From a virus: a stretch of DNA of 64,000 nucleotides. Below the pieces are notes generated by a model. That model was not told the DNA's origin. It made no database searches and saw only the letters and a list, made by a program, of their open reading frames with translations. This document shows positions 8,344 through 62,718 of the stretch, piece after piece. Both the position numbers and the translations under genes were made by a program. How positions within the stretch are numbered: position 1 is the first letter of the stretch; each line of letters opens with the position of its first letter. Location of the stretch: positions 64,001-128,000 of the IMG/VR virus record IMGVR_UViG_3300033146_004399, one strand, 5' to 3'.

Positions 8344-8889
8344 ATGGCATTTCCAACAAGTCCAACTGATGAACAAATTTTTGAAGATTATAAATATGAT
8401 ACAAATATAGGAGCTTGGCTAACTGTAGAAGATTTAACTGTTTATGCAAAATATAAAAACAATAGTTCATCATTAACAGGTAATTCTGGTACAATTATAA
8501 ATTTTAATGTTAAAATAAGTGATTCGCTTAATACAGTAACTACTGGAAGTGATTGGAGATTTGTTGCACCATATGATGGAGTATACATTATCAATGGTTA
8601 TGCAGAAACTACTATAGAAAATACTACCCCTGCAGGGTTTTCAGAAATATATTTTAAATATTTAAAAAATGGAACTTTAGCAACTGATCATATAGGTGGC
8701 AAATATAATTATCCACAAACAACATATTCATCGTGTGGAGTTGGCGGAGCGTTTGGTACTACTATAAAATTATTAAAAAATGAGTATATATCTTTTATTA
8801 TAATATATACTTCAACTTATGGTATTATATCGTCTACTAATCCATGGTCTAGTATTTCATATATATCTATAGTAAGAGCAAGTTCATAA
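8344..8889 (+). CDS. MAFPTSP-module protein with C1q-like C-terminal domain (putative virion tip protein)
   Basis: N-term MAFPTSPTDEQIFEDYKYDTNIGAW; FVAPYDGVY C1q-like signature. Confidence 0.7.
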   Translation: MAFPTSPTDEQIFEDYKYDTNIGAWLTVEDLTVYAKYKNNSSSLTGNSGTIINFNVKISDSLNTVTTGSDWRFVAPYDGVYIINGYAETTIENTTPAGFSEIYFKYLKNGTLATDHIGGKYNYPQTTYSSCGVGGAFGTTIKLLKNEYISFIIIYTSTYGIISSTNPWSSISYISIVRASS

Positions 8890-8927
8890 AAATGAAATGT
8901 ATATTTAAGAAAAAAGGAGAAAATAAA

Positions 8928-9665
8928 ATGAAAGACGCTAATTATTACAACAAGAAGTGGAAAAGGTCCCCTATAATATATGGTGGACGAGCACTAAGAG
9001 GTAGAAAAGATAGGATCAACGTAGATGTTAAAAATTTTATAACAACAAACGATGCTATATTAGATAATATAGTAAAGAAATACAGGCTTAAAAAATCATC
9101 AACAGATGCTACGGTATTAGCTGTTCAAAAGTGGGTTGTTAAATTTCTCACGTATAAAAGTGATGATAAAGAAAATCAAACACCTGAATTTTGGCAATTT
9201 CCATTTGAAACCCTGCAATCACAGATCGGTGATTGCGAAGACGGTGCCATTCTTATTACATCACTTTGTATAGCAGCAGGAGTACCTCCATTCAGGGTTA
9301 AAGTATCTGCAGGTTATGTCCAATCAGCACCTCATGCAGAAACCGGTGGGCATGCATACGCAATATATTTAGCGTCAGATTCTGAATGGAGAATAATTGA
9401 CTGGTGCTACTTTCAAGATTCTAACATTAAAGTTTTGAAAAAACCATTGGCCAAAAATGGTGGGCAAAGAAACGCTTATAAAGAGACATGGTTTACTTTT
9501 AATAATGAATATTCATGGAATCAGACTTCACTTAAATTAGGTGGAAGAATTAGTAATGATGTAGCCGATTTATCATCTAATACTAAGGAAGAAACTTTAA
9601 CAGAGAGTAAAACTCAGATGAAAGATATACTAGCTGATATTGATAAGAAATATAAAGCTAAATAA
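8928..9665 (+). CDS. Transglutaminase-like cysteine protease
   Basis: GDCEDGAILI (Cys), GGHAY (His), IIDW (Asp); GGAG RBS before ATG8928. Confidence 0.8.
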   Translation: MKDANYYNKKWKRSPIIYGGRALRGRKDRINVDVKNFITTNDAILDNIVKKYRLKKSSTDATVLAVQKWVVKFLTYKSDDKENQTPEFWQFPFETLQSQIGDCEDGAILITSLCIAAGVPPFRVKVSAGYVQSAPHAETGGHAYAIYLASDSEWRIIDWCYFQDSNIKVLKKPLAKNGGQRNAYKETWFTFNNEYSWNQTSLKLGGRISNDVADLSSNTKEETLTESKTQMKDILADIDKKYKAK

Positions 9666-9742
9666 ATTTAGAATAATTCAATCTTTATACCAGGTGGAAT
9701 GAAGATAATATAGAATAAAACCTTATTTGGAGGAATGTATAT

Positions 9743-11659
9743 ATGAGTGGTAGAACGAAAATTAAACTACCTTGGCAGACTAGATTCTCTAAAGATGTAT
9801 CTTTAGAAAATGTAAGTTTAACTGATTTAGTAATGCCGGAAGATAAAGCAATACCTGAAGCAACATCACCCAATGATGTTATTAATAGACAATATGTAGA
9901 AGGCGTAATAGGCGGTGGTGGTGCTGCAGTTATTGGACCATCTGAAGATGGAACGTATGATGATGGATTATTTCAAGATTTTGAAGAAACTACAGAAGTT
10001 GGTACTGCAGTTGATAGATTTAATGAGCTTTTTAAAGCTCTTGCACCTGCTCCTGCACCGAGTCTTTCTAATATTGGAATAGCCGATTCTGGTGTGTCTG
10101 GGAAACTATCTTTCGGAACATCGAATGTAATAGCAGGATATACACCCGTTCCAGCTAAAGATGTAGGTGGAAGTTTTACATCCTCAGGAGAAGAAGCTGG
10201 TATCTTTGCGGCTGGAAGAGTAATTAACGGATCCATTGCTGATAATGTTCCAGTAGGTGGAGCAAATAATAGACCTTATCCAGCAAAAGCTTTTGGAGAT
10301 GCCGATCAAGGTTTATTACATCTTGAAGTAAACGGTACAATTATTCATACTGTGGATTTAACAACTTTTAATTCTGGTAATTCATTAAATGGAAACGGTT
10401 CAGGATTTAGTTTATCTACTGCTGCTCCTATTCAATTTGATTCAGGAGAAACATTAGACTTATTTAATTATAGAACAGGAACTTGGACAGTAAGTGCTGC
10501 AGATCAAGTCAACGGATATAATGTCGTAAAAGTGAGACACGAATACACGGCCGGATCATTTAGAGATACTAATATATATGGTTGGGTTATCGACAATGAT
10601 ACAACAGCAACAACATTTACAAGCGAAAACGTAGCAAATCCATCAATGTCTGGTATAAATCAGATTTCTGGTGTTACATATCATACAGCTGGTACAATTG
10701 ATTATTCAGTAACTATATCTAATCCGTATAGAAACACATACTCATCTTCTGGAAGTGCTGTTAATTATACTGGTACCAATATATCCCCAGTAGATGAACC
10801 GTTGGCGACGCCATCAACTGAAACGCAAGATGTAGCCATAGTTGCAAAAACTATAGCAATAAGTAGTGTTAGTAGAATGTTAAACGGGAGTGTTGAAGTT
10901 GGTGTTACTTTAGACAGAACAGTACAAGGTGATTTATCTTCATCCGGCGACTCTTTAGCAGGTTTCCTTGTAGACGCAACTACTGATTCTTCCACTGATA
11001 CTTCTGAACCATTCAATGGTGAAGGTTATAGACTCCATACAGGGTTAGTTTTAACTGATACAAATTATGGAAGTGGAAAAAATGCTTCAGCATACGATTG
11101 GGATTCTTCACAGAATTTAATGTCAGGTGGGGCAGATTATACTACTGGACTTTTAATTGCTAACGGACAATTGTCTTACCCTTCACAAACTAATCATATA
11201 CCAAATATTGCTGGTGGCGATTTCAGTTCTGTAACTTATGGTCCTGGTGGAAATCCAAATTATGCAACAGCTTCTGGTAATAGAACATATCTTAGATATT
11301 TTTATTCTTCAATGTCCTATTCAAATTTTAAATTAGCTCTTGCAGTGACAAATACATCTTTTGTGACTACTGCTACTGGTCCTTCCGCTAACAATGTAAC
11401 GCTTGAAATACTTGCACCTAACACAACAAAAAATACTGGCGGTACGGTTGAGTTTAAAGATGCTGTAGAACCGCATAACGCAAACGATAAAGACATCGGT
11501 TGTTTCGCATCAACATTCGGTGATACAATTCCTACAAATTGGGGATTAACTCTTGGCGCAGAAAACACATCAACTTCTGGTCAAGTAATAGTAGTTCGAA
11601 TCACTGCATCTTCAGCATGGACTGGAAGTATTGATTCAATGAACATAACTTGGCTATAA
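9743..11659 (+). CDS. Probable virion structural protein (Gly/Ser/Thr-rich, beta-rich)
   Basis: 638 aa; composition like the neighbouring fibre genes. Confidence 0.6.
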   Translation: MSGRTKIKLPWQTRFSKDVSLENVSLTDLVMPEDKAIPEATSPNDVINRQYVEGVIGGGGAAVIGPSEDGTYDDGLFQDFEETTEVGTAVDRFNELFKALAPAPAPSLSNIGIADSGVSGKLSFGTSNVIAGYTPVPAKDVGGSFTSSGEEAGIFAAGRVINGSIADNVPVGGANNRPYPAKAFGDADQGLLHLEVNGTIIHTVDLTTFNSGNSLNGNGSGFSLSTAAPIQFDSGETLDLFNYRTGTWTVSAADQVNGYNVVKVRHEYTAGSFRDTNIYGWVIDNDTTATTFTSENVANPSMSGINQISGVTYHTAGTIDYSVTISNPYRNTYSSSGSAVNYTGTNISPVDEPLATPSTETQDVAIVAKTIAISSVSRMLNGSVEVGVTLDRTVQGDLSSSGDSLAGFLVDATTDSSTDTSEPFNGEGYRLHTGLVLTDTNYGSGKNASAYDWDSSQNLMSGGADYTTGLLIANGQLSYPSQTNHIPNIAGGDFSSVTYGPGGNPNYATASGNRTYLRYFYSSMSYSNFKLALAVTNTSFVTTATGPSANNVTLEILAPNTTKNTGGTVEFKDAVEPHNANDKDIGCFASTFGDTIPTNWGLTLGAENTSTSGQVIVVRITASSAWTGSIDSMNITWL

Positions 11660-11663
11660 AAAT

Positions 11664-11695
11664 AAAAAGGAGTTTATATTATAAGCTCCTTTTTT
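11664..11695. terminator. Bidirectional terminator between convergent genes
   Basis: AAAAAGGAGTTTAT-att-ATAAGCTCCTTTTTT. Confidence 0.75.
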
Positions 11696-12783
11696 AATAC
11701 GTCTTTAATATTTTCATTATATTTTATTCTAATTAATTTTATATTATTATCTAAACAATATTGATTTTTAATTTTATCATTTTGTTGTATATATTTAAAA
11801 CCTTCTTCTCCGCCAAAAAAATCTATAGGTTCATAATGTTGTTTTCCATCGTATTCTATTAAAAGCTTATCATGTATATAAAAATCAAATGGAAGAGGAA
11901 GAATATTTTTACAGTCATTAAATCTTTTTTGTCTTATATATTGTATATTTTTATTATCTAAATAATGAGCTATTGCTTTTTCACCTTTTGATTCATTGCA
12001 TACCGGGCAACCTGTGTCACCATAAATATGATTTCTTGCTATTTGTTCAAATACTCCATGAATAGGACATATTATTTTAATTTTTTCTCTACCTATTGTA
12101 TATTTAGAAAGAGAGTAGTTATATTTATTACTATGTATTAATTTTGCTTTTTTTATAAATTTTTTTGTATCAATTCTGCTTTTCAATCTATAACATTTAT
12201 CACAACCTGCTCCATTTAAATGCGCAGGCGGGATTTGTTCAAATATTCCATGTTCTGGACATATTATTTTAACCTTGGTATTTGCATTAATATAACTAAC
12301 TAAAGAATAGTTATATTTACTACCATGTATTTGTTTAGCTGTAGTAATAAATTTTTCTTTAGTAAATGATTTTATACTTTTTATATAATTATGTTGACAT
12401 TTAATGCATCCTTTGCCACTTAAATGCGCATCTGGTCTTTGCTCAAATGTTCCGTGGATAGGACATATTATTTTAATTTTAGTTTTATTGTTTATATATT
12501 CAACCAAAGAATAATCATATTTATTGTCATGTTTTTTAGAAGCTTGTTTTATAAAAGTTTCAAGTGTTTTAGTTTTAAATTCTGTTCGTTTTCTTATACC
12601 ACATTTTTTACATCCTCTATTGTGTAAATGATTTTTGGGTGTTTGTGCAAATATACCGTGTTCAGGACATATTATTTTAACTTTAGTTTTATTATTTATA
12701 TATTCTACTAAAGAATAATCATATTTATTATTATGCACAATATTAGCTTCTTCTATAAATTCATTTAGCGACTTTCTCCCCAT
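11674..12783 (-). CDS. Zn-ribbon repeat (x4) endonuclease, paralog of 2323..3231
   Basis: 4 KYDYS/CPxHG/CxxC repeats, then ESKGEKAIA..LPFDF..LIEYDGKQH; likely start 12783. Confidence 0.8.
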   Translation of the reverse strand: MGRKSLNEFIEEANIVHNNKYDYSLVEYINNKTKVKIICPEHGIFAQTPKNHLHNRGCKKCGIRKRTEFKTKTLETFIKQASKKHDNKYDYSLVEYINNKTKIKIICPIHGTFEQRPDAHLSGKGCIKCQHNYIKSIKSFTKEKFITTAKQIHGSKYNYSLVSYINANTKVKIICPEHGIFEQIPPAHLNGAGCDKCYRLKSRIDTKKFIKKAKLIHSNKYNYSLSKYTIGREKIKIICPIHGVFEQIARNHIYGDTGCPVCNESKGEKAIAHYLDNKNIQYIRQKRFNDCKNILPLPFDFYIHDKLLIEYDGKQHYEPIDFFGGEEGFKYIQQNDKIKNQYCLDNNIKLIRIKYNENIKDVLKKELII

Positions 12784-12878
12784 ACATTTAATTATGCTTT
12801 TATACAATAAAAGCAAGACTATTGGTAATAAATAACTTAAGATAATTAAATATAACGAAATATAAGGAGAAATTAATT

Positions 12879-13775
12879 ATGGCATTTATTGATAAAACTA
12901 AGGCGAATATAGCATATAAAAGAGTATTAGGCAAGATTCATACATCTAACGACAGAGAAGCTTTTAATGAACCTCTCTCTTCAAAATTTTTAATAGCAGC
13001 GCAGGATATATGGGCAGAAGATGTTCCACCTGTACCTGTTAGCGGAGGCACTTCAGTGGTAAGTGATCTTTTAGATTTGAATTTAGTACCGGTTTCGGGT
13101 ACAGATAATACTGGTATTTTCTCTGCTTACATGCTTAAACTAGGTGCTACTGTTCCTGCTTCACTTGTTGGTAAAAAAAACCGGTTGACTGGTGCAGTTT
13201 ATGCTGCATATGATAGAGTTGGGCAAATCATACCTATGGACATGGGGCCTGGTTATCAGCCTAAACCTTATGAAGGCACAACAGCAGTTTTCCCAATGGA
13301 TGCAAGTGATTGGTATATCGATAACTTCTCTGGTATTTTAACTCAAGAAACAGATAATCCCTCTTTCATGAGAGATTATACTCAAGCAAATTCTAAATTT
13401 CAATGTTATGTTTATATTGGTAAAATGATTACCGAAGCTTTTGGCGGTTTGGGTGGTGGTGCAACATATAATTTCTTTGATAAACAAAGTCCACAAGTTT
13501 TAGACGGACCTGGTGGGAATATAATTACAGCAGCTAATGGTATATCTGGGGACCAAGACGGAGTTAATAGAGTTTTTACTCTTAATGCTGCATGCGATTA
13601 CAATTCAGAGCATGTTTATATGAATGGTTCCCTTATGCAAGCTGGTAAAGATTATACTATAGCTGGAAGTGTAATAACTTTTTCAAATTCAGTAGAAATA
13701 TCTACTGGTGTATTCGCAGATAGAACACCCGAACCTACAGACTTAGTACAAGTTTCATACAGAGAAGAAGCTTAA
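12879..13775 (+). CDS. Probable virion structural protein with C-terminal Ig-like module
   Basis: GVNRVFTL..VYMNGSLMQAGKDYT..DLVQVSY; similar module at the N-terminus of the 2157-aa fibre. Confidence 0.6.
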   Translation: MAFIDKTKANIAYKRVLGKIHTSNDREAFNEPLSSKFLIAAQDIWAEDVPPVPVSGGTSVVSDLLDLNLVPVSGTDNTGIFSAYMLKLGATVPASLVGKKNRLTGAVYAAYDRVGQIIPMDMGPGYQPKPYEGTTAVFPMDASDWYIDNFSGILTQETDNPSFMRDYTQANSKFQCYVYIGKMITEAFGGLGGGATYNFFDKQSPQVLDGPGGNIITAANGISGDQDGVNRVFTLNAACDYNSEHVYMNGSLMQAGKDYTIAGSVITFSNSVEISTGVFADRTPEPTDLVQVSYREEA

Positions 13776-13799
13776 TAAAGAGAAATTTAATATATAGAG

Positions 13800-13824
13800 G
13801 CTGGATTTAAATCCAGCTTTTTTT
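13800..13824 (+). terminator. Intrinsic terminator
   Basis: Palindrome GCTGGATTTAAATCCAGC followed by T7. Confidence 0.85.
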
Positions 13825-13845
13825 ATTAAAAGCATAATTAAATAT

Positions 13846-14571
13846 ATGGGCAAAATTTTAACAACTGAAGAATTTATAAAAAGAGCTAAAGAGGTGCACA
13901 GTAATAAGTATGATTATTCAAAAACAAAGTATAAATTAGCCAGAGAAAAAATTGATATAATATGCCCAATTCATGGTTCTTTTAAACAACAGCCAAATCA
14001 TCATCTGAAGGGACACGGATGTGAAAAATGTGGTCATGTTAAGACTTCAAGTCATCATACGAAAACTGTTCAATATTTCATAAAAAAAGCTAAAAGAATA
14101 CATAATAATAAATATGATTATTCTTTGGTTGAATACATAAACAATAAAACTAAAGTTAAAATAATATGTCTAAAACATGGTATATTTGTTCAAACACCAG
14201 ATAATCATTATAAAGGTAAGGGTTGCCCAGTTTGTAAAGAGAGTAAAGGTGAAAAGGCTATAGCCCATTATTTAGACAATAAAAACATACAATATATAAG
14301 GGAACACAGATTCGATAATTGTAAAAATATTCAAGCGCTACCATTTGATTTTTATCTTCCTGAATATAATATATTAATAGAGTTTGATGGAATACAGCAT
14401 TTCTCCTCAAATTTTTTTGGTGGAGAAAACGGTTTAAAATATCGAAAACAAAATGATAAAATTAAAAATCAATATTGCATAAATAATAATATTAAGCTAA
14501 TACGGATAAAATATAATGAAGATATAAATTTAATATTAAACACGTTGGTCAGTACGAATACCTGTTTATAA
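13846..14571 (+). CDS. Zn-ribbon repeat (x2) endonuclease, paralog
   Basis: 2 repeats, then ESKGEKAIA..LPFDFYLP..LIEFDGIQH. Confidence 0.8.
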   Translation: MGKILTTEEFIKRAKEVHSNKYDYSKTKYKLAREKIDIICPIHGSFKQQPNHHLKGHGCEKCGHVKTSSHHTKTVQYFIKKAKRIHNNKYDYSLVEYINNKTKVKIICLKHGIFVQTPDNHYKGKGCPVCKESKGEKAIAHYLDNKNIQYIREHRFDNCKNIQALPFDFYLPEYNILIEFDGIQHFSSNFFGGENGLKYRKQNDKIKNQYCINNNIKLIRIKYNEDINLILNTLVSTNTCL

Positions 14572-14678
14572 CACTTCCTTGTTTTTAAAATATTTAAAAT
14601 TCTTTTTAAATAATACCATACTATCTCCGTCTTAATGTATAAGATAATATAAGAAATTAAAATGACAGGAGGCACAAA

Positions 14679-49564: not shown

Positions 49565-49615
49565 ACAAAGATTTTACAGAAGTTTTATGATTAAGAAGCA
49601 TAGTTATGTTTATAT

Positions 49616-49687
49616 GTTGTTATGGTCTAATGGTATGATGCGGGATTCTAAATCCTTGCGGTTTGGGTTCGATTCCCAATAACGACA
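49616..49687 (+). tRNA. tRNA with CTA anticodon (amber suppressor type), CCA not encoded
   Basis: Acceptor GTTGTTA/TAACGAC; D loop with GG; anticodon arm CGGGA-TTCTAAA-TCCTT (CTA at 49648-50, outer pair mismatched); T arm TTGGG-TTCGATT-CCCAA; discriminator A. Confidence 0.85.
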
Positions 49688-49689
49688 AT

Positions 49690-50499: not shown

Positions 50500-50501
50500 T
50501 A

Positions 50502-52877: not shown

Positions 52878-52917
52878 TTGGAAAAGGATAAACCTGTAGT
52901 ATAATTATTATAGTAAT
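52878..52917 (+). promoter_or_regulatory. Promoter TTGGAA-N16-TATAAT with near-palindrome ATTATTATAGTAAT
   Basis: -10 at 52900-05; palindrome at 52904-17. Confidence 0.6.
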
Positions 52918-52935
52918 TGGGAGTTGTAATTACTT

Positions 52936-53565: not shown

Positions 53566-53567
53566 TT

Positions 53568-53861: not shown

Positions 53862-53863
53862 TT

Positions 53864-53891
53864 TTGGAGATTTATTAATATATGTTATAAT
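53864..53891 (+). promoter_or_regulatory. Promoter TTGGAG-N16-TATAAT
   Basis: Same spacing; TG extended -10. Confidence 0.6.
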
Positions 53892-53920
53892 GTAAATATA
53901 AAGAAACAAAGAGGTGAACG

Positions 53921-54166
53921 GTGAAAATTAAATTTATTAAAGAGTATGAAGGTTGGCCAGGTCAATCAGTAGATTACATGGCAACTTATGATAATGGTTC
54001 TTCTCAAAGGCATACTTGCTCGAAAAATGAATGGATTGTTATAGAAACTCGTGAACTGTTGTTAAAAGCTGGTGCAGATAAAGACTTACTCGAGAGATTT
54101 GCGAGGGCAATTAAAGACGTTGCGCAAGAGGATGAGTGGATGTCTAATGTTGGAGAAGAATTATGA
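53921..54166 (+). CDS. Hypothetical protein
   Basis: 81-aa ORF, GAGGTG RBS. Confidence 0.6.
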   Translation: MKIKFIKEYEGWPGQSVDYMATYDNGSSQRHTCSKNEWIVIETRELLLKAGADKDLLERFARAIKDVAQEDEWMSNVGEEL

Positions 54167-54425
54167 CAACTAAAAAAATATTAGAAGAATATCAAGAAAA
54201 AGCTGAAATTATCTTAAAGGCTAAGAATTTAGAAATAAATCCTATAGGTCAGAGATTGAGAGTTCTTGCCCTCGCTGCTGTTTTAAAAGAAAATGACAAA
54301 TTAATATGGAAAAGTCAAAAGGCTATAAATAATGGATGAAAATAAATCTAAGAAATTACAGAGTAAAATAAATAAATATGTAAAGTACTCTCCACTTAAG
54401 TTAAATTTAGATTTAGGTACTTGGA

Positions 54426-54629
54426 ATGAGTTTATTTAGTTTATTTAGTTTGTATTTTATACCACCACTGATAACAGTAATTATTATTGCTACTTTCTTT
54501 CATCATATGAAGATGGAGTTTACTCGTGGATATTTAATAATGTATTATATAATGCTTATGTTTGGACCAGTTGGTTTTATATTTGGTCTACTTTTTATAA
54601 AAGACAATTTTACAAAGGATGAATGGTAA
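54426..54629 (+). CDS. Small membrane protein
   Basis: 67 aa, hydrophobic. Confidence 0.45.
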   Translation: MSLFSLFSLYFIPPLITVIIIATFFHHMKMEFTRGYLIMYYIMLMFGPVGFIFGLLFIKDNFTKDEW

Positions 54630-54663
54630 TCAGAAAGGAAAGTTAATGCTTTCCTTTCTGATT
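54628..54663. terminator. 15-bp inverted repeat at convergent gene junction
   Basis: AATCAGAAAGGAAAG-ttaatg-CTTTCCTTTCTGATT. Confidence 0.8.
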
Positions 54664-54680
54664 GTTATAAATCTTTTAAT

Positions 54681-55550
54681 TTATGAATTTAACTTAATAG
54701 CTGTAATAACCTCTTGCATTAGTCCAACGGTATCCCATGGGTTATCCATAATATCGTCGGTGACATAAACCCAACCATAATATTCTAAAACTTCTGCAAA
54801 TATAGTGGCATCGGCCCCAGCTAAAGCACCTACAGTTGAGGTATGTTTAAGAAGACCTCTTTTCCATAGCTTAGAGCCACCAGGCCAAGGACCGTCGGTC
54901 ATAGGTGAAGAAGGCCAAACTGAATTTTCCCATTCAATTACGATATCAAATATATCTTGGAATGCCATTTCATCCAAATTATAGCCAGGATTTGAAACTG
55001 TAATTCCTAAACCAACTTCTCTAGCATAATCAGCTACTTCTAAATAGTATGCTAGTTCTTCTGATAAATTTGTAGTACCATCAGATTGTTCATCAAAGAA
55101 AATACCTGAGATTTCAGGGTAAAGACTTTTCCAATTATCTATAGCAGCTTTAACTGTAGTAACTGAAGCTGCTCTGTATTGTGTAGGAACATACCCTATT
55201 ACTTTAATACCAGCAGCCTGCATTCTATTATGAACTTCTGTATATTGCGCGTCTACTGAAGCACCAGCTCCTTCATCTGGATTTGTAATAGCAATCATTG
55301 GAATTGTTCTATTTTTCCTTTTAAAATCAATTAATGAAAGATAATCTGCATTTGTATATGAATTTGTTGGATAAATATACATAGGAATTATTATTCCTGT
55401 TTGTTGTGATGAGGAGATTCCAGGACTCTCCATAAATCTTTTAAGTTTCGCGAGTGTTTCTACGCCGTCTGCAGCAGTCTGCCCAACAAGTATTTTGTCG
55501 GCAGTCGTTAACGTGCCGGCAGCAGCAATTGTACTAAAATCTTTAGCCAT
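54681..55550 (-). CDS. Spherulin-4/GH135-like polysaccharide hydrolase with N-terminal fibre-type anchor
   Basis: IPMYIYP, TNPDEGAG, GYVPTQY, GIFFDEQ, VSNPG; first ~40 aa resemble 57788..58780. Confidence 0.8.
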   Translation of the reverse strand: MAKDFSTIAAAGTLTTADKILVGQTAADGVETLAKLKRFMESPGISSSQQTGIIIPMYIYPTNSYTNADYLSLIDFKRKNRTIPMIAITNPDEGAGASVDAQYTEVHNRMQAAGIKVIGYVPTQYRAASVTTVKAAIDNWKSLYPEISGIFFDEQSDGTTNLSEELAYYLEVADYAREVGLGITVSNPGYNLDEMAFQDIFDIVIEWENSVWPSSPMTDGPWPGGSKLWKRGLLKHTSTVGALAGADATIFAEVLEYYGWVYVTDDIMDNPWDTVGLMQEVITAIKLNS

Positions 55551-55565
55551 TTTCTATCTCCTTAT

Positions 55566-55919
55566 TTATGCAATTCTAATTTCTAAATTATTACCATCTG
55601 ATAACATAAACGCTTCTCCATCAATTGTAAAAGCATTTTCTCCAAATGCTACATTAGGTTGTACATCATCAGTAAGATCGTCATCTTCTATAATGATTGC
55701 ATTCTTAGTAAATGATGCAATTTTACCAGTAACATTCCATTCCATTGCTACACCAAAAACCTCTGTTGGTAAAAGTTCTGGTTCCGTAATTATTGTATCA
55801 GCATTTATAGCAGCGTCGTATAAAGACCTTGCACTTTCTACCAATTCGGTATCAGTAAAACTGCCTTTGTCTCTACGTCTAATTTGATATTTTATTTTTT
55901 TTAATCTATCTTCAATCAT
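55566..55919 (-). CDS. ~120-aa RLKKxxYQ family protein (copy 1)
   Basis: Paralog of 58795..59157 and 60882..61241. Confidence 0.7.
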   Translation of the reverse strand: MIEDRLKKIKYQIRRRDKGSFTDTELVESARSLYDAAINADTIITEPELLPTEVFGVAMEWNVTGKIASFTKNAIIIEDDDLTDDVQPNVAFGENAFTIDGEAFMLSDGNNLEIRIA

Positions 55920-55920
55920 T

Positions 55921-56580
55921 TTACAACTCCTTTAAATATCCTTTATTAAAAAGATGATTTTTCACACTTGGGAAAAATCCTCTTTTACCTAATTTAATTA
56001 ATAAACCAACATGTTTAAATCCCCATCCGCCGAAAGGTACAAGAGGAACAATATCATGCCCATATACATATCTTGTAGTCGCAGGTACCCTCTTATCATA
56101 TGAAGCAGCTAAAGCCCCGTTACCAACCCTAGGGCTTCCGGTAGTCATACATTCAATTTCTAAGGAAGGAAAATTATATTGGAAGTCTAATGCCATTATA
56201 GTAGCAATAGCAGCTCCAAAACTTTGACCCATTATTATAATTTTCTTTCTATCTTTGATTATCTTATGCATATCTTCTCTAATAAGTAAATAACTTTTAT
56301 AAAAACCCCTATGCATTTTAATTTTTTTATTAGACCCTTTATACGGTGTTTTCATTAACGGGAAACTAAGATTATACATCCAATCCATAAATTCATTTGA
56401 ACCTAGAATAAATATAATTTCATCTCCGTTATATCTTCCGATAGCTATTTGAACATGTTTCTTTTGGAGAGTTGCAACTATGGTATTTATTTTTATCTCC
56501 CCTTTGAATACTTTTTTTCTATCTGCCGATCTTACATCCCAATATTTTTGAGCTATATAATGAATTAATTCTTTAGTCAT
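55921..56580 (-). CDS. Class 3 lipase (alpha/beta hydrolase)
   Basis: MHRGFY, nucleophile GQSFG, GSPRVGN, DIVPLVP; GGAG RBS before ATG56580. Confidence 0.88.
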   Translation of the reverse strand: MTKELIHYIAQKYWDVRSADRKKVFKGEIKINTIVATLQKKHVQIAIGRYNGDEIIFILGSNEFMDWMYNLSFPLMKTPYKGSNKKIKMHRGFYKSYLLIREDMHKIIKDRKKIIIMGQSFGAAIATIMALDFQYNFPSLEIECMTTGSPRVGNGALAASYDKRVPATTRYVYGHDIVPLVPFGGWGFKHVGLLIKLGKRGFFPSVKNHLFNKGYLKEL

Positions 56581-56628
56581 TTGTAATCTCCTTACATTAT
56601 CTTGCAACTATTGTGCATACTTATTATT

Positions 56629-57051
56629 ATGGGTACAAACTATTACATAAGATATAATATTTGCTCTTGTTGTAACAGAAGTGATGAAGTGCATATAGGG
56701 AAGTCGTCTATGGGTTGGCAATTCACCTTCCATTCTGTAGATGATTATGATATCAAGATGTCCTCTTTCGATGCTAAAAATATGTTGGCAGAAGATGATT
56801 CTCATCTCATTATTAAGAGTTTCCAGGATTGGCGAAAATTCATTGAGAAATATGTTATAGAACAAGGAACTGCTAAAATATATAACGAGTATGGGGAAGA
56901 AGAGTCTGCACAAGAGTTTTTTAATTTGGTAGAAAGTAAGAGAGATGGTAAGAATCATGCTGAATATATAAATAATGATTATACATCCATAGACCATGGA
57001 GATTATGTAGATGAGGAAGGATATTCCTTCTCACCAGGAGAGTTTAGCTAA
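56629..57051 (+). CDS. Hypothetical phage protein (MGTNYY..HIGKSSxGW)
   Basis: Opposite-strand insertion within the appendage cassette. Confidence 0.65.
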   Translation: MGTNYYIRYNICSCCNRSDEVHIGKSSMGWQFTFHSVDDYDIKMSSFDAKNMLAEDDSHLIIKSFQDWRKFIEKYVIEQGTAKIYNEYGEEESAQEFFNLVESKRDGKNHAEYINNDYTSIDHGDYVDEEGYSFSPGEFS

Positions 57052-57260
57052 TGGATTATTTTATTATGCATGCAAGTATTAAAGGGAAGAAAAGCACAGT
57101 AAGTTTTTATTTGGAGTCAGAATTGATGAATGCATTAGAAGATATGTCTTCTATGGCTGCATTTATGTTTGAAGGAGAGGGAATTCCTTTCGAAGATGGA
57201 AGTGTAGGATATTTCACTCCAGACGATGATTTCATCTATCTGGAGGAAAAGATTGTTTAA
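57051..57260 (+). CDS. Hypothetical acidic protein
   Basis: 69-aa ORF coupled to upstream gene. Confidence 0.55.
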   Translation: MDYFIMHASIKGKKSTVSFYLESELMNALEDMSSMAAFMFEGEGIPFEDGSVGYFTPDDDFIYLEEKIV

Positions 57261-57769
57261 ATATAGTATCCTATAACATTTGCACTAAAACTACCAAATG
57301 TTCCTGTAGCTGTCCATAAACAATTTATTTGATAATTTTCATCCAATGGTATTGTGATAACAGCATGCTGATAAACTCCTGAATTGGGCATTGCACTACC
57401 AATAGCAATAGTTCCGCCATCTGCCGGAAGTGCTTCGTTTCCTTTACCAAACCCAGCCCAATACCAATCATTTGCGCCTGTTTCTGATTTATAGACCCAC
57501 CATCTTAACACAACAGCTTTTGCTCCAACTGGAAGTCTTGACGCTAAAGAAGGTGATAGATATAATGTACCAGTTATTGGACTGGCTTGTGACCAAATAG
57601 ACGTAGCGTTTCTGTTAGAATAGTCAACCATATGTAAAGTACCAAGGTTATCGTCACCTAAAGATGATTGAGCTTTTTCTAATTCAATTTTTAGCCAAGC
57701 TCCTGCACTTGTATTATATCTATAATTTTCAAATATTTGTCCATTAGATGGACTTGTTGGGAATGCCAT
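57257..57769 (-). CDS. MAFPTSP-module tip protein with beta-sandwich domain
   Basis: MAFPTSPSNGQIFENYRYNTSAGAW; LPVGAKAVVL. Confidence 0.7.
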   Translation of the reverse strand: MAFPTSPSNGQIFENYRYNTSAGAWLKIELEKAQSSLGDDNLGTLHMVDYSNRNATSIWSQASPITGTLYLSPSLASRLPVGAKAVVLRWWVYKSETGANDWYWAGFGKGNEALPADGGTIAIGSAMPNSGVYQHAVITIPLDENYQINCLWTATGTFGSFSANVIGYYI

Positions 57770-57787
57770 TTTTATTACTCCTTATTT

Positions 57788-58780
57788 TTATAATTGTATC
57801 CATTCTGAGCCCGTATATTTAAAAAAGGCATTCAAATCTGTTCTGAAACAATCGTCTCCTGCAACAGGACTTCCTGGGAAGGATGTTCCAGATGTGAAAG
57901 TAACATAATTTCTAACAACAGTATCAAACCTCTTCTCAACATCATTCCATACTGCAATACCACCATCTATAGGTGAAGTTTCACGAGTTGCTACTGCTTG
58001 TTCTGAACCTTGTTCACCTATTACAAATGTATCAGTTAATTCCTCAAATACAAATCTATAATTTAATTCATCACCTCTCTCAACTTCCATACCACCAACT
58101 AATGAAGTCGCTGGAGTCCCTGTTTGACTTTTATTAACTGTAATCATATTGTCTTCAACAAGGAGGGTTGCCGTGTCAATAGTAGTCGTTGTGCCTGAAA
58201 CTATTAAATCACCTGCTACAGTTAAGTTATTATTAGCTATCGTATCTCCAGCAAATTGAATATTACCACCAGCGGAAGAGTTGGAGAAAACAATATTCTT
58301 ACTAGCAACACCAGTTACTGTAAATTCCATACCACCAGGAGCTATTGTATTTACTTCATTGCCTGCTTGAAGAGTAAGGTTACCGTTACCTGTACCAGGA
58401 GTTGATGAGGAGGTTTTAATCTCAATAGCTTGATCTGTATCTGTTTGAAAGGTCATAACGCTCGCTGCATCTTCAATTACCTTCTTACCATTTACATATA
58501 AAGAGGAAGCACCAACAAAAATTTCGTCAGCATATACAGAATTAAACTTCTGTGTTGCGGAACCAAGATTTCTTACAGAAACTTCACCAGTTGCACCAGT
58601 CATTTCTGGGAGGATATCTTCAGTTGTTATATCATTCGTGAGAGTGAGACCTTTAGCTTCTATGTATGTTACTAAAGATGATAGAGTTGTTGCTCTATCT
58701 AAATCAGTTTGTCCTACAACTAATTTATCTACATCGTTTAATGAACTCGTAAGTTCTATCGTACTAAAATTCTCTGCCAT
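57788..58780 (-). CDS. Short tail fibre-like protein
   Basis: Body highly similar to 59575..60882; ends in FPGSP..FRTD..KY..W module. Confidence 0.75.
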   Translation of the reverse strand: MAENFSTIELTSSLNDVDKLVVGQTDLDRATTLSSLVTYIEAKGLTLTNDITTEDILPEMTGATGEVSVRNLGSATQKFNSVYADEIFVGASSLYVNGKKVIEDAASVMTFQTDTDQAIEIKTSSSTPGTGNGNLTLQAGNEVNTIAPGGMEFTVTGVASKNIVFSNSSAGGNIQFAGDTIANNNLTVAGDLIVSGTTTTIDTATLLVEDNMITVNKSQTGTPATSLVGGMEVERGDELNYRFVFEELTDTFVIGEQGSEQAVATRETSPIDGGIAVWNDVEKRFDTVVRNYVTFTSGTSFPGSPVAGDDCFRTDLNAFFKYTGSEWIQL

Positions 58781-58794
58781 AATTTATACTCCTA

Positions 58795-59157
58795 TTACGC
58801 TGTTTGTAATTCAAAAATTTCGTTATTTATATAGAAAAACTCATTATTAGTTTGAAAAGCTCCTGTGATGAGTTGATCATTTATCGTTGGTGTTACTTCA
58901 TCTGTTAAATCATCATTATTGATTTCATATTCTCCACCATCAATTGAAAGTGAGAGATTATCCGCACTCCATAATAAAGTGAGTCCTAAAGCTTCAGTAG
59001 GGAAAGTGTCTCCTGAGAGATCAGGAGAATCTGCATTTATAGCAGAATCATATATAGATTGAACCATAGGTATTCTATCTGCAACAGACCAATCACCATC
59101 TTGTTCTTTAAGAATTTGATATTTTAATTTCTTTAGCCTCTCTTTAACTTCTTGCAT
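58795..59157 (-). CDS. ~120-aa RLKKxxYQ family protein (copy 2)
   Basis: RLKKLKYQ..SIYDSAINAD..FPTE. Confidence 0.7.
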   Translation of the reverse strand: MQEVKERLKKLKYQILKEQDGDWSVADRIPMVQSIYDSAINADSPDLSGDTFPTEALGLTLLWSADNLSLSIDGGEYEINNDDLTDEVTPTINDQLITGAFQTNNEFFYINNEIFELQTA

Positions 59158-59168
59158 TTCTTACTCCT

Positions 59169-59575
59169 TTATGCTATTCTTCCTATAGCTGTTGCTGTAT
59201 AATATGAAGTCCCGGTGCTTGTTGCATAACCAGAAAATGAAATTGATGTACCGGTCGTAAAATTACTTGCCGCACTATTATGATAACCAAGTTCACTTGT
59301 TCCTTCCATAAAATACCATGAAACACCGACAGATCCCGCAACAAAAGCTTTCGGAAAAGTCCAAGTACCAACTCGAGTTGAATTTGCAGCTGTACCGTTC
59401 ATAGCTGTTCTTGCTTTATAATATATTAATGTCCCATCTGAAAATTCTGTCTATCCTCCATTTAAATTGGAACCGGATGATATAATTCCCCAGCTTTTTT
59501 CCAAGCGCCCCGTGTTGAGTTATAATAGTATTCGTTATAAATGTCATCATCTGAAGGAGATGTTGGAAATACCAT
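59169..59575 (-). pseudogene. MAFPTSP-module tip gene with gp53-like tail-fibre domain; frameshift plus in-frame TAG
   Basis: MVFPTSPSDDDIYNEYYYNSTRGAWKKAG, shift at G4 (59488-91), then IISSGSNLNGG*TEFSDGTLI..WTFPKAF; TAG at 59451-53. Confidence 0.75.
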
Positions 59576-60882
59576 TACATCTGCATCCAAGTTGCACCAT
59601 TATATTTATACCACTCATCTAAATCTGTTCGATAACATTCATCCGCAAAACCCGGTGTTCCAGGAAAGGCAATACCTGCAGAAGCGGTAACAACTCTACG
59701 AGCTTGAATCAAAAGGTCAGTTCCGTTATAAGTCATATTTGAATGAGTATCAAATCTTTTAGTACTATCATTCCAAAAAGCAACACCAGCAGCAGCTGGA
59801 GCATCTTCACGAGTTGCAACTGCTTGGAGAGTACCAGACTCACCAACTTTAAAAGAATCAGTTAATTCTTCAAATATAAATCTATAATTAGGTGAATCAC
59901 CGCGATTAACTTCAATACCTGAAACAAGACTTTCAGCTGGTACGCCAACTTGTCCCTTATTAACTTCAATTATATTATCTTCAACAAGGAGAGTCTGTGT
60001 ATCAAGAGTAACTGTTGCACCTTCGACTGTTAAATCTCCAGATATAATAAGATTTGTTGCTTGAACAGTACCATTAAGATCGATAGTAGTTGCTGTTATG
60101 TCAACTTCCTCAGTGGAGGATATTAAAACTTGACCATTAGTTGCAGCGTTAGATATTGTTAAATTTTTATTTGTAATTCCAACTGGCACTGTTATTTCAA
60201 CACCACCTTTACCTAGAATATTAACTTCATTATCTGACTGGAAGGCAAGATTACCATTACCAGAACCAGGAGTTGAAGCAAGAGTTTTAATTGCAAGACC
60301 TTGATCTTCATCTGTTTTAAAAGTCATAGTGTCTGCAACATCTTCAATTACCTTCTTACCATTTACATATAAAGAAGAAGCCCCAACAAAAACTTCATCA
60401 GCATAGACTGCGTTAAATTTTTGAGTGGCTGAACCTATATTTCTTACAGAAACTTCACCAGTTGCACCAACCATATTAGGTAATATATCTCTTACAACTA
60501 TGTTTCCTTCTATTGGTCCACCAGCAAGCACATCTAATTTTGTATTTAATTGTGCTTGGAGGTCTGTAATATCTGTCGCATTTAAAGTATCACCAACTCC
60601 TACAAAATTAATTGTTAACATACCTGTTTGATATATTGGGTTTAAAATGTATAGTTGTTTGTATACATTTTTACCAAATAAATTGGTTAAGTTTGAATCT
60701 AAAGTTACTAATGAATAATCTTCAGATAATAAAGTTTCTCCATCAATATGTTCAATAGTTAAACCATCTTCATAAAATAATCGTACAGGTAAATTTACCT
60801 GTTCAACCCCTACATCACTAATTTGATAATCTACAAAATTGTGCCCTGATTCTATAATATCGTACATTTGTTTTAACGCCAT
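59575..60882 (-). CDS. Tail fibre-like protein
   Basis: Paralog of 57788..58780 with a different N-terminus; ends AFPGTP..YRTD..YKY..W. Confidence 0.75.
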   Translation of the reverse strand: MALKQMYDIIESGHNFVDYQISDVGVEQVNLPVRLFYEDGLTIEHIDGETLLSEDYSLVTLDSNLTNLFGKNVYKQLYILNPIYQTGMLTINFVGVGDTLNATDITDLQAQLNTKLDVLAGGPIEGNIVVRDILPNMVGATGEVSVRNIGSATQKFNAVYADEVFVGASSLYVNGKKVIEDVADTMTFKTDEDQGLAIKTLASTPGSGNGNLAFQSDNEVNILGKGGVEITVPVGITNKNLTISNAATNGQVLISSTEEVDITATTIDLNGTVQATNLIISGDLTVEGATVTLDTQTLLVEDNIIEVNKGQVGVPAESLVSGIEVNRGDSPNYRFIFEELTDSFKVGESGTLQAVATREDAPAAAGVAFWNDSTKRFDTHSNMTYNGTDLLIQARRVVTASAGIAFPGTPGFADECYRTDLDEWYKYNGATWMQM

Positions 60883-61241
60883 TATAATGCTCCTCCATAA
60901 TATGATTTACCGAAATACCCCATCCCAATATTTGGGGAATTTACATAATTTCTTTTTTCTATATTTTCTGCTGTTAAGTCTTGAATAACGTAAACGCCAG
61001 TTTTTTTAATTTTAACTATTGTATCATTGTCCTCTCCAGCACTCCAATCTAAATTACAATCCAGAAAAGTGGTTGGCATTTCGGAATCTTGTACTGTTGT
61101 AAGGTCATTTAGTACAAGACCATTAAGAGTAGATTCTGCAGCAGCTACATAATCTGCGTCTTCCCAGTTTACTAATATACCAGGTTTTTGTGGTTTTAAA
61201 TGTTGAAACTGTATTTTTTTTAAACGATCTAATCGTGTCAT
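60882..61241 (-). CDS. ~120-aa RLKKxxYQ family protein (copy 3, most divergent)
   Basis: RLKKIQFQ..MPTTFLDCNLDWS. Confidence 0.65.
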   Translation of the reverse strand: MTRLDRLKKIQFQHLKPQKPGILVNWEDADYVAAAESTLNGLVLNDLTTVQDSEMPTTFLDCNLDWSAGEDNDTIVKIKKTGVYVIQDLTAENIEKRNYVNSPNIGMGYFGKSYYGGAL

Positions 61242-61256
61242 TTATTACTCCTTTTA

Positions 61257-61754
61257 TTAATTTATCAAATACATGGACCAGGAGTAGTTGCCATAATAAT
61301 AGTCACTACTTAAAAGAACTTTTACTTGGTCATCTTTATTAAGTTGAACAATTCCGTTAATTGTGGCAGCACCATGAATATAAGCATTTGCAGCTATTCC
61401 AGTTGTATTAAGACCGGCTTTTACAATTAATTCTGCATTTCCGTTTATTACGAGATACGAAGCACGGTCTCTTAATATATTTGGTTCGTATGCATTAGTA
61501 GCTAATATTACATTAACTTGATATTGCCCTGATAAAGGACATGTCCAAATACTATTTACCATAGTATTATGAGAATCAATACTAGCCACAAATGGTACAT
61601 AAAATGGGTCAGTAATAGATAAAGGCGGTGATTGAGAACAACTACTTACCATAATAACTTTATTTTTATTAATATCATCCCATAATGATTGTAATTCATT
61701 ATAATAATAATTTTTATATCGTTGTCCATCTACTGGACTTGTTGGAAATGCCAT
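61257..61754 (-). CDS. MAFPTSP-module tip protein, C1q-like
   Basis: MAFPTSPVDGQRYKNYYY; WTCPLSGQYQVNV; LNKDDQV. Confidence 0.72.
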   Translation of the reverse strand: MAFPTSPVDGQRYKNYYYNELQSLWDDINKNKVIMVSSCSQSPPLSITDPFYVPFVASIDSHNTMVNSIWTCPLSGQYQVNVILATNAYEPNILRDRASYLVINGNAELIVKAGLNTTGIAANAYIHGAATINGIVQLNKDDQVKVLLSSDYYYGNYSWSMYLIN

Positions 61755-61765
61755 TTAATTACTCC

Positions 61766-62218
61766 TTAAACTGTTCTTTTCCGTATTCTTACTGTTTGGT
61801 TAACTGGCCTAGCTTCTATATCACCAGATGAATTAGTACTATTTCCATAGCTTGATCTATTTAATGCTACTTCAGTAAAACCATATTCAGTTTTGTTATT
61901 TACAATGCCTTGCAAAAATGACATATTTGATAGACTATAGCTGTAACTTTTATTATCGCCACTTTGTTGGCCATTTTCAAATGTTGATGCATCACCACCT
62001 TCTATTCTAATGAAATCTCCGGCATAGGTAGAAGAAACGTTAGTCCACCATCCATACCATTCAGCACCAGTTAGGCTTGATTTTCCTGGCAGTTGAGTAT
62101 AAATAAAGTCTATATTAAAATATTTATCTGGATCTAATTTAATCCAAGCTGTTTTAGCCGTTTCATATATATATTGTTTAAATAATTGTCCGTCTGCTGG
62201 ACTTGTTGAAAAAGTCAT
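61766..62218 (-). CDS. MAFPTSP-module tip protein, tail-collar-like (partly degenerate)
   Basis: MTFSTSPADGQLF; FIYTQLPG..FIRIEGG..EARPVN; start ATG62218. Confidence 0.65.
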   Translation of the reverse strand: MTFSTSPADGQLFKQYIYETAKTAWIKLDPDKYFNIDFIYTQLPGKSSLTGAEWYGWWTNVSSTYAGDFIRIEGGDASTFENGQQSGDNKSYSYSLSNMSFLQGIVNNKTEYGFTEVALNRSSYGNSTNSSGDIEARPVNQTVRIRKRTV

Positions 62219-62229
62219 TTCTACTTCCT

Positions 62230-62718
62230 TCAATTTACTAAAAATCCCGAAAATGCACCATATCCAGTTCCATATGTTGGCCCAGGTCCTTCATTAAAGA
62301 CACCGATAGTATCTGCTGCATTTAAATAAAATGTCATAGACATAGTTGAATAATCATAATCCCAACCGTCAAATGCAGTACTATCGCCACCAGCTAATGT
62401 ATCCCCGGTTATTGCATCTTTGCTTCCATTAATAATCCACCACAATCTATGATAAGTTTCTTCATTTGATAGACGCATTAATGCGTTAAAAGAAAATGTG
62501 TACAATCCACTTACTGGCGCTGTAAACAAACCGGTTGCTTCGCTAAAACAATTGTGTGAATCATGAACAACGGAACCCCATATAATAGTATTTTGTGTTG
62601 AGGTGATAGCTGGGTGTTTTACTTGAAATCCTAAACTTTTTAATTTGCGCCAAAGACCATTATTATATTCATAATCTTTATAAATTTGTCCATCTACTGG
62701 ATTTGTTGGAAAAGCCAT
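62230..62718 (-). CDS. MAFPTSP-module tip protein, C1q-like
   Basis: MAFPTNPVDGQIYKDYEY; TGLFTAPVSGLYTFSF; GAFSGFLV. Confidence 0.8.
   Translation of the reverse strand: MAFPTNPVDGQIYKDYEYNNGLWRKLKSLGFQVKHPAITSTQNTIIWGSVVHDSHNCFSEATGLFTAPVSGLYTFSFNALMRLSNEETYHRLWWIINGSKDAITGDTLAGGDSTAFDGWDYDYSTMSMTFYLNAADTIGVFNEGPGPTYGTGYGAFSGFLVN

Follow-up and report, generated by a model that had tools for sequence, protein, structure and literature searches.

Related short modules at the ends of headless fibre shafts and of separately encoded tips suggest a split receptor-binding fibre system in a large phage

Results

Shafts and tips of the window

The 64,000-nucleotide stretch of phage DNA analysed here (the window) encodes two fibre shafts that end in a short C-terminal module (C-module), and six genes, one of them broken, that begin with a similar N-terminal module (N-module) and then diverge (Table 1; tips and fibres are named by start coordinate). 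The proposal of an earlier note on this DNA, that headless shafts are served by separately encoded, exchangeable tips, is well supported by comparative genomics, namely by gene order, by a tip repertoire that varies among relatives and by fibre–C1q fusions elsewhere. Since the same gene pairing occurs in other aquatic phages, the heads probably clip onto the shafts and set the host range.

Table 1. Tip genes, fibre shafts, terminal modules and cassette genes of the window
Feature	Position	Strand	Description
Orphan tip, 181 aa	8344..8889	+	N-module and C1q-like core; not adjoining a fibre
Third cassette	54681..55919	-	117-aa RL paralog (55566-55919) and 289-aa protein (54681-55550)
Tip, 170 aa	57257..57769	-	N-module (residues 1-28) and beta-rich domain; own GGAG ribosome-binding site
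Fibre shaft, 330 aa	57788..58780	-	N-terminal anchor MAENFSTI..., conserved shaft, no head domain; PHROG virion structural matches
C-module of 330-aa fibre	about 57791-57889	-	C-terminal end of shaft
'RLKKLKYQ' paralog, 120 aa	58795..59157	-	Upstream of 330-aa fibre
Broken tip gene	59169..59575	-	N-module intact; ORF1 59462-59575
Fibre shaft, 435 aa	59575..60882	-	Different N-terminus (MALKQMYDIIESGH...); ends in C-module
C-module of 435-aa fibre	about 59578-59676	-	C-terminal end of shaft
'RLKKIxYQ' paralog, 119 aa	60882..61241	-	Translationally coupled to 435-aa fibre; cassette partner
Tip, 165 aa	61257..61754	-	N-module and C1q-like core
Tip, 150 aa (MTFSTSP...)	61766..62218	-	N-module and domain common to relatives
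Tip, 162 aa	62230..62718	-	N-module and C1q domain (Pfam PF00386, 33.9 bits)

The N-module spans 28 residues and follows the pattern M(A/V/T)F(P/S)T(S/N)P..(G/D/E)(Q/D).(F/Y)..Y.Y....W from residue 1; the 30-residue C-module reads FPG(S/T)P...(D/E)C(F/Y)RTDL...(F/Y)KY.G..W.Q(L/M)-stop, both fibres ending three residues past its Trp. An ORF listing combined with a six-frame motif scan returned the same six N-module genes and two module-ended fibres that the earlier note had described, and a module gene does directly follow each fibre, 18 nt separating fibre 58780 from tip 57769 and a TAATG overlap joining fibre 60882 to gene 59575. When all 179 kb of the record were scanned with a loose motif, terminal copies were confined to these eight, and the only other matches were two diverged, internal, hairpin-like motifs beyond the window. 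F, P and W are invariant in all eight aligned copies from the window. Compared by hhalign, the N- and C-module profiles match across 25 columns at 81% (E 1e-5), a reversed control giving 1.3%, and the two modules are probably homologous. Neither belongs to a Pfam or PHROG family or has a match in the literature searched.

Gene 59575, which had been read as a pseudogene, is broken as sequenced: the reading frame changes at an A6 run (59495-59500) or immediately past it, a stop at 59462-59464 closes ORF1 and an in-frame TAG follows at 59451-59453. Beyond that, as far as 59169, the sequence is similar to tips of the 'SGSNxNGxW..Y.DGT' kind in relatives. Every intact tip has its own Shine-Dalgarno sequence. 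Less in keeping with docking on the shafts, tips 62718, 62218 and 61754 sit upstream of the shaft cassette, and tip 8344 lies 50 kb away. In the third cassette, which contains no C-module and no tip, the 289-aa protein joins a Spherulin4 domain to the same N-terminal fibre anchor.

Head domains

Three tips had been called C1q-like, and this part of the earlier domain assignment stands: tip 62718 scores above the Pfam cut-off of 23.7 bits for C1q, and tips 8344 and 61754, which have no Pfam match, align to the 62718 family through an FTAPvsGxY C1q core (hhalign 97.6-97.8%). Against GenBank phages, tip 62718 gave only weak cyanophage C1q matches. The gp53-like and collar-like assignments could not be corroborated for the window, as tips 62218 and 57769 have no Pfam match, including to Gp53-like_C (PF21882) and phage tail Collar, and their AlphaFold2 (AF2) head models are poor. 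Tips of relatives do match Gp53-like_C in Pfam, and one (locus L139) bears a sequence motif that we take to be collar-like. Tip 62218 (AF2 from 7 sequences, mean pLDDT 51) has a head domain that recurs in proteins P0231, P0187, P0134, P0168 and P0207 and in the 158-aa tip of locus L132. For tip 57769 (AF2 from 72 sequences) the model is good for the module only; VIA-align gave nothing but generic rows (beta-sandwich or jelly-roll, Z<=6), to which we attach no interpretation, and the clusters from the ESM Atlas search were all viral and unnamed. Neither the module profile nor the tip alignment, the fibre alignment or the tandem-repeat protein P0129 had a relevant match among PDB sequences, and the module and tip queries found no foldon chain.

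Gene order and tip sets in relatives

Adjacency was counted wherever the context of a C-module-ended gene could be read, in 17 cases that come from varied large phages and include the window's two. The next gene starts with an N-module in 12 (the window twice, L110, L111, L127, L130, L132, L134, L135, L136, L138 and L139), at a spacing of -1 to about 80 nt. The five exceptions comprise RL-domain fusions (L007, L008, L112), an RL gene with a Spherulin4 fibre (L109) and lysis genes (L121). Two syntenic relatives, adjoining HSP70/HSP20, carry three (L110) or five (L111) tips behind the same shaft, and arrays of four stand behind C-module-ended genes in L130 and L136; the comparison of tip content across related phages that the earlier note had suggested thus shows differing sets of three, four or five tips with a recurring pairing. 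In two other phages a C1q-like head is covalently joined to a fibre: P0033 fuses the window's shaft family, without modules, to a C1q-like end, and in P0272, a fibre of 475 aa, the end shares 48% identity with tip 62718. Comparison by eye of C- and N-module variants gave no pattern of covariation, with too few independent pairs.

That fibre and tip form one polypeptide through readthrough or frameshifting, or that the tips are assembly chaperones absent from virions, is hardly credible. The shared frame of fibre 58780 and tip 57769 and the presence of a tRNA(CUA) in the phage speak for a fusion, but two TAA stops lie between the two genes and the other pairs vary in frame as well as gap. With stops in all frames and a ribosome-binding site for each tip, readthrough or frameshift fusion was rejected. 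Nor do the tips look like chaperones, C1q, gp53-like and collar-type domains being those of binding heads.

Distribution of the modules

A joint profile of both modules matched 355 protein clusters (E<=1e-3) in a database of 1.84 billion representatives. Most are proteins of 100-250 aa with the N-module first and divergent sequence after it, the majority without a family; of the best 149 among the 355 clusters, 103 open with the module at residue 1 and differ beyond it. When 72 of these were searched against Pfam, C1q was found in eight, Gp53-like_C in five, BclA_C and Gp10_C in one each and no family in 57. About 30 relatives of the fibres terminate exactly in ...GDECYRTDLDEWYKYNG..W.QI-stop, without a head, and the C-module also ends unrelated bodies, namely P0251 (Mtd_N, 124 aa), P0227 and P0145, the last of which has an N-module-like start as well. 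Units resembling the C-module also occur as tandem repeats of ~39 aa within large tail proteins that match DUF2793 (P0129, 44.7 bits in Pfam), and the unit is therefore a generic fibre building block, a point against the docking reading.

In IMG/VR, 83 genes of N-module type (48-2190 aa) stand mostly behind fibres that lack a C-module, so the N-module has no general need for one. An S74-chaperone-like motif ends 29 of 81 genes upstream of these; a module immediately before the S74 chaperone was looked for in the upstream fibres and none was found. Searches by tblastn with 34-36-aa modules gave no match in GenBank phages, for which the low-complexity filter is possibly responsible. A C-module DNA pattern had no matches in IMG/VR and two in JGI contigs, and an N-module pattern searched in 185,579 species genomes had none in its strict form and five, mostly in MAGs, in its loose form.

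It could be argued from such genes that the N-module is a general virion anchor whose binding site is not the C-module but, for instance, a baseplate protein, an adaptor or the previous fibre's processed end; tips and the long fibres headed by an N-module would then all be independent appendages. DUF2793 receptor-binding proteins, which are encoded downstream of the central fibre, work in this way (bioRxiv 10.1101/150227), and the N-module heads proteins of up to 2190 aa that stand in tandem behind S74-ended fibres. The IMG/VR set, however, represents a different N-module subfamily (GQ...VNG..Y.Y), and in the window's own subfamily a C-module mostly precedes the N-module; we regard a general anchor as quite improbable.

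Predicted module structure and likeness to foldon

AF2 modelling of tip 57769 as a monomer predicts residues 1-30 with pLDDT 95-97, residues 1-11 as an extended segment and residues 16-19 and 24-27 as strands. This predicted fold, an extended N-terminal segment and a single beta-hairpin in about 27 aa, has the layout of the T4 fibritin foldon. Residues 4-13 of the N-module (PtSPtdGQiY) align with the foldon at the same numbering, the profile's sole fibritin match in a comparison for which the foldon sequence was checked against T4-like fibritins; the similarity is not statistically significant (HMM 1.6 bits; hhalign 54% over 10 residues), and the C-module gives hhalign 1.8%. Like the T4 foldon and RB49-type fibritin, the modules combine a P-x-x-P-x-D-G-Q-x-Y ... 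W motif within ~27-30 aa with a predicted extended segment and hairpin, and they lie at a fibre end (C-module) or just ahead of a head (N-module). Unlike in the foldon, the hairpin of the window modules is 5-9 residues longer and the N-module is N-terminal on a separate polypeptide.

Because of this resemblance, simple trimerisation is the main rival to docking between the modules. The two caps would be independent foldon-like units, the C-module closing the shaft trimer and setting its register, which is the role of the foldon in T4 fibritin, and the N-module nucleating the head trimer as in RB49-type fibritin; tips would attach elsewhere (to RL proteins, the baseplate or the fibre side), adjacency reflecting only the clustering of receptor-binding genes. 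The shared numbering with the foldon agrees with this, as do Krischvirus fibritin, in which foldon-like VPDDGFHYLRKRGEWVQV precedes about 140 aa, the C-module fibres without tips (L121, L007, L112) and the N-module genes behind other fibres. Against it stand the insignificance of the foldon similarity, the recurrence of C-to-N adjacency across otherwise unrelated shaft bodies and the fact that C-module shafts have no head of their own; moreover, nothing but the N-module is conserved among the tips, which leaves it as the sole candidate attachment site. We judge trimerisation alone unlikely, if less so than a general anchor.

Conserved 5' DNA of the tips

The 5' DNA of the tip genes is conserved, as had been noticed: over their first 42 nt the five intact tips share 76-88% identity, and the longest stretch without a mismatch measures 21 nt (8344 versus 61754). 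The excess over what shared amino acids and codon usage predict amounts to only 3-5 nt in 42, and protein conservation explains most of the identity. Because the excess is so small, the further suggestion that this DNA seeds tip swapping by recombination is weak.

Discussion

We lean towards a split receptor-binding fibre system in which shafts bearing the C-module receive, non-covalently, heads bearing the N-module. The two shafts, presumably trimeric, would each provide a virion anchor and a shaft, without a binding head, capped by the C-module. Small, separately translated proteins would supply the N-module, as an extended FPxxPxDGQ segment plus hairpin, followed by unrelated heads (C1q/TNF-like, gp53-like and others). 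Most likely, an N-module trimer would stack on or interlock with a C-module trimer, and any of several heads could clip to a given shaft copy, so that virions may carry a mixed or switchable receptor repertoire. More tentatively, we suggest that the two modules may be a portable pair of dedicated connectors, foldon-like caps that join trimer to trimer end to end and present one to five alternative heads per shaft type within one virion population; proteins with both an N-module-like start and a C-module end (P0145) might then be extension links, and the pair a previously undescribed standard of fibre assembly widely shared by large aquatic phages.

If the caps dock, gene order alone would pair heads with shafts in uncultured large phages, and several receptor specificities could be explained with no DGR or invertase. 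Connectors of 30 residues may also offer a practical handle for head swaps on engineered phage fibres in the laboratory. Moreover, as modules present in hundreds of protein clusters yet assigned to no family, the two fill an annotation gap.

A separately encoded adhesin on a fibre end is a known theme, of which the window system would be a variant. The long tail fibre of the T2/T6/S16 type reportedly consists of a gp37 shaft and a separately encoded gp38 adhesin. The gp38 protein is encoded by the next gene, sits non-covalently at the headless distal tip of the fibre and determines host range. Common to both systems are a headless fibre end and an adhesin-type gene next to it, known here from gene order and the fusion cases. 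However, gp38 is a single unrelated protein, one per fibre, whereas window-type systems have arrays of one to five alternative heads, and the 28-aa N-terminal cap mirrored by a homologous shaft cap has no counterpart in, or sequence similarity to, gp37 or gp38. In the lactococcal phage TP901-1, small trimeric receptor-binding proteins (BppL, ~160 aa) are held N-terminally on the C-terminal domain of an upstream-encoded adaptor (BppU); these differ in having unrelated sequences, a helix-plug architecture and a place in a siphophage baseplate rather than at a fibre end.

Putative receptor-binding C1q genes adjoin tail-fibre genes in marine phages (Mizuno et al., 2014, PMC3909814) and cryoconite phages (Bellas et al., 2020, PMC7468147). 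They too are small genes beside a fibre gene, with a conserved N-terminal end and a hypervariable C1q domain across co-occurring variants, but they are single genes, not arrays, and those papers define neither a connector module nor a matching fibre cap. The DUF2793 (PF10983) receptor-binding proteins of DMS3/JBD26-like phages and the RcGTA tail fibre Rcc00171 have a fibre gene directly upstream, a conserved N-terminal module and highly divergent C-terminal parts, and are found in virions (10.1101/150227; PMC5026251). The window tips share this layout and genomic position as a functional analogy and not as membership, PF10983 having no match even at E<=1 in any window tip or fibre. DUF2793 is a domain of roughly 100 aa, whereas the window module is one hairpin of 28-30 aa that is also found at the C-terminus of its partner.

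Results

The 28-residue N-terminal module of the small tip proteins (nt) begins six ORFs of the window from residue 1 onward, with the consensus M(A/V/T)F(P/S)T(S/N)P..(G/D/E)(Q/D).(F/Y)..Y.Y....W, while the 30-residue module of the fibre shafts (ct), FPG(S/T)P...(D/E)C(F/Y)RTDL...(F/Y)KY.G..W.Q(L/M)-stop, closes two fibre genes (Table). Directly 3' of both fibres lies an nt gene, after a gap of 18 nt in one pair and with a stop/start overlap (TAATG) in the other; this arrangement, described in an earlier note, is confirmed in the window sequence. The intact tips each have a GGAG-type ribosome-binding site of their own (5/5), and tip gene 59575 is broken by a frame change at or beside an A6 run and by an in-frame TAG. 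This TAG occupies the Trp position of related tips (SGSNLNGG then TAG versus SGSNANGSW) and may reflect a TGG-to-TAG lesion or else be decoded by the phage's amber-reading tRNA(CUA), encoded 10 kb away from the fibre cassette. The phage, with an IMG/VR record of 179 kb (30% G+C) at an estimated completeness of 63%, is evidently large; the window, which spans positions 64001-128000 of that record, also encodes a T4-type large terminase, RtcB, Hsp20 and DnaK. Tip 8344 is an orphan with a 292-nt gap upstream and no adjoining fibre, followed by genes for a transglutaminase-like protein and a 638-aa Gly/Ser/Thr-rich protein.

Features of the window and of related loci (L, loci in other phages or contigs)
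Feature	Coordinates	Strand
nt start, tip 8344	8344	+
nt start, tip 57769	57769	-
nt start, tip 59575 (broken)	59575	-
nt start, tip 61754	61754	-
nt start, tip 62218	62218	-
nt start, tip 62718	62718	-
Orphan tip 8344 with the gap upstream	8052-8889	+
Transglutaminase-like protein	8892-9665	
Gly/Ser/Thr-rich protein	9743-11659	
tRNA(CUA)	49615-49688	+
Spherulin4 fibre	54681-55550	-
RL paralog	55566-55919	-
Class-3 lipase/esterase	55921-56607	-
ct-ended fibre, 330 aa	57788-58780	-
RL paralog	58795-59157	-
TAG of broken tip	59451-59453	-
A6 run	59495-59500	
ct-ended fibre, 435 aa	59575-60882	-
RL paralog	60882-61241	-
RL-domain relative	L008:8992-10074	
RL-domain relative	L112:10987-12069	
RL-domain relative	L136:6864-7463	
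RL-domain relative	L136:8995-9681	
P0145	L130:6001-6747	
nt-headed fibres (tandem)	L050:2833-8711	
Ab30 ORF57	L108:2141-3292	

Beyond the module the tips differ. Tip 62718 matched C1q in Pfam (33.9 bits) and the C1q core motif aligned tips 8344 and 61754 to its family (hhalign 97.6-97.8%), which bears out the proposed three C1q-like tips; the labels 'gp53-like' and 'collar-like' were not confirmed for the window's own tips, though both signals occur in the tips of relatives. Tip 57769 shares the module alone, the rest being a beta-rich domain, and tip 62218, with five homologs among the module matches, gave no Pfam match and a poor AF2 model.

A 34-position profile built from eight module copies matched 355 clusters at E<=1e-3 among 1.84 billion representatives, with the module at residue 1 in 103 of the best 149. 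Most nt-started proteins are of 100-250 aa and unrelated beyond about residue 30; Pfam over 72 of them found C1q (8), Gp53-like_C (5), BclA_C (1), Gp10_C (1) or no domain (57). Metagenomic relatives of the 330-aa fibre number about 30 (43-66% identity), and almost all of them stop exactly at SGTSFPGSPG.GDECYRTDLDEWYKYNG..W.QI-stop, without a head domain. The ct module also ends otherwise unrelated proteins, namely P0251 (124 aa, Mtd_N), P0227 (381 aa), P0192 and P0145, and ct-like units recur as ~39-aa tandem repeats within large tail proteins matching Pfam DUF2793 (P0129, E 1e-11), which makes the unit a general building block of fibres. The nt and ct profiles aligned over 25 columns (hhalign 81%, E 1e-5; reversed control 1.3%). 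No Pfam or PHROG family covers nt or ct, and a literature search did not find the motif quoted in any paper.

Discussion

The main evidence for reading these genes as a fibre split into shaft and tip is gene order. Taking every ct-ended gene with a readable downstream gene (n=17), an nt gene came next in 12: the two window pairs, L110, L111, L127, L130, L132, L134, L135, L136, L138 and L139. L138 and L139 were found by the ct DNA pattern alone, and four other cases were module-profile matches picked solely for a C-terminal ct. In the syntenic L110 and L111, genes for HSP70, HSP20, a 119-aa RL protein and a 435-aa-type shaft are followed by three and five tips, respectively; four tips follow P0145 in L130, and P0025 of L136 has four tips after it and three before it. 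Among the five exceptions, the next gene encodes an RL-type domain fused to others, e.g. DUF285, in L007, L008 and L112, an RL gene and a Spherulin4 fibre follow in L109, with two nt genes located 3 kb beyond, and lysis genes follow in L121. L008 and L130 lie on one 274-kb contig, so the genome of this 'exception' also contains a ct-to-nt array. P0145 itself (248 aa) starts with a degenerate nt-like segment (…GRYIYDSTIGAWKKF), ends in a perfect ct and could serve to extend a shaft towards the tips as a linking piece.

Covalent fusions point the same way. P0033 is a shaft-family member that runs on into a C1q-like end without nt or ct, and P0272 is a 475-aa fibre of another phage type whose last ~130 residues are 48% identical to tip 62718. 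In these fusions the heads sit distally on the fibre, and the comparison shows that the ct and nt pair takes the place of a peptide bond in other phages. The earlier idea of a shaft with exchangeable, docking tips is thus partly supported, by gene order, tip arrays and fusions, and on balance we lean towards tips docking on shaft ends through the nt and ct modules.

The main rival is that nt and ct are simple foldon-like trimerisation caps, a reading that follows from three likenesses. Residues 4-13 of nt match a 10-residue stretch of the T4 fibritin foldon at identical numbering, and the nt profile touches fibritin nowhere else (the foldon sequence was checked against T4-like fibritins), although this match lacks significance (1.6 bits; hhalign 54%); AF2 predicts for nt residues 1-30 an extended segment and hairpin of foldon-like topology (pLDDT 95-97); and Krischvirus (RB49-type) fibritin carries a foldon-like motif and then a ~140-aa head in a single chain. 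An IMG/VR pattern scan found 83 genes starting MAFPT(S/T)P..GQ...VNG..Y.Y......W, which encode 48 to 2190 aa and frequently form tandem sets. The genes upstream mostly lack ct; 29/81 end in an S74-chaperone-like motif, and only 9/56 unique upstream genes end in any hairpin-like motif, versus 2.6% of control ORFs. It follows that nt can head whole fibres and that ct is not generally needed, which speaks against a simple ct-nt socket. Docking and trimerisation caps are compatible if two caps stack.

Several further observations concern these caps. A second nt subfamily (MAFPTSPTNGQ..VNG..Y.Y......W) heads IMG/VR fibres of up to 2190 aa (L050, L070, L074, L060), which often start at a -1 overlap after a fibre with an S74 intramolecular-chaperone-like end; L050 has nt fibres of 937, 1646 and 313 aa in tandem. 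In L014, L017, L028, L040 and L079, proteins of 116-132 aa with an M(A/S)HFA(K/Q)... start and a very foldon-like end (…PVPYPLDGERYEWNDTTHQWNKAAQ-stop) have genes that precede an nt gene by 1-40 nt (188 nt in L028), and may form with its product another cap-to-cap pair. ORF57 of Pseudomonas phage Ab30 (DMS3 gp49-like), a known pilus-binding tail protein matched by tblastn of the T4 foldon, contains a sequence closely resembling the foldon (…ADAPSDGSNYARNNGAWGKL…) downstream of the DUF2793 region.

It had also been suggested that the conserved 5' DNA seeds tip swapping by recombination. The first 42 nt of intact tips are identical at 32-37/42 positions, against 29-33 expected from shared amino acids and phage codon usage, and exact runs reach 21 nt at most (usually 10-16 nt); such short runs offer little substrate for homologous recombination, and the suggestion is therefore weakly supported.

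Each of the three RL genes of the window, which encode 'RLKKIxYQ' paralogs of 117-120 aa, lies ahead of a fibre gene. Relatives combine this N-terminal domain with C-terminal domains that vary (DUF285, LRR-like), and RL proteins may form a second family of adaptors or heads instead of acting as chaperones. Two subtypes occur: RL proteins ending in ...YYGGAL accompany the 435-aa shafts, and those ending in ...E(I/L)(R/Q)(I/T)A accompany MAxxFSTI-anchored fibres. The fibre N-terminal anchor (MAKDFSTIAAAG..ILVGQT) and a Spherulin4 domain (Pfam E 2e-30) make up a fusion protein that is probably an enzymatic appendage, and the same cassette holds a class-3 lipase/esterase gene.

It is established that adhesins on fibre ends can be separately encoded, as in gp37/gp38 and BppU/BppL. 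The tips resemble DUF2793 proteins in their conserved N-terminal anchor, variable distal part and position downstream of a fibre gene (10.1101/150227; PMC5026251), and marine phages carry C1q genes with a conserved N-terminal end beside tail-fibre genes (PMC3909814; PMC7468147). What is new here is a specific, putative connector pair of 28-30 aa that sits in mirrored positions on shaft and tip, together with the arrays of several tips.
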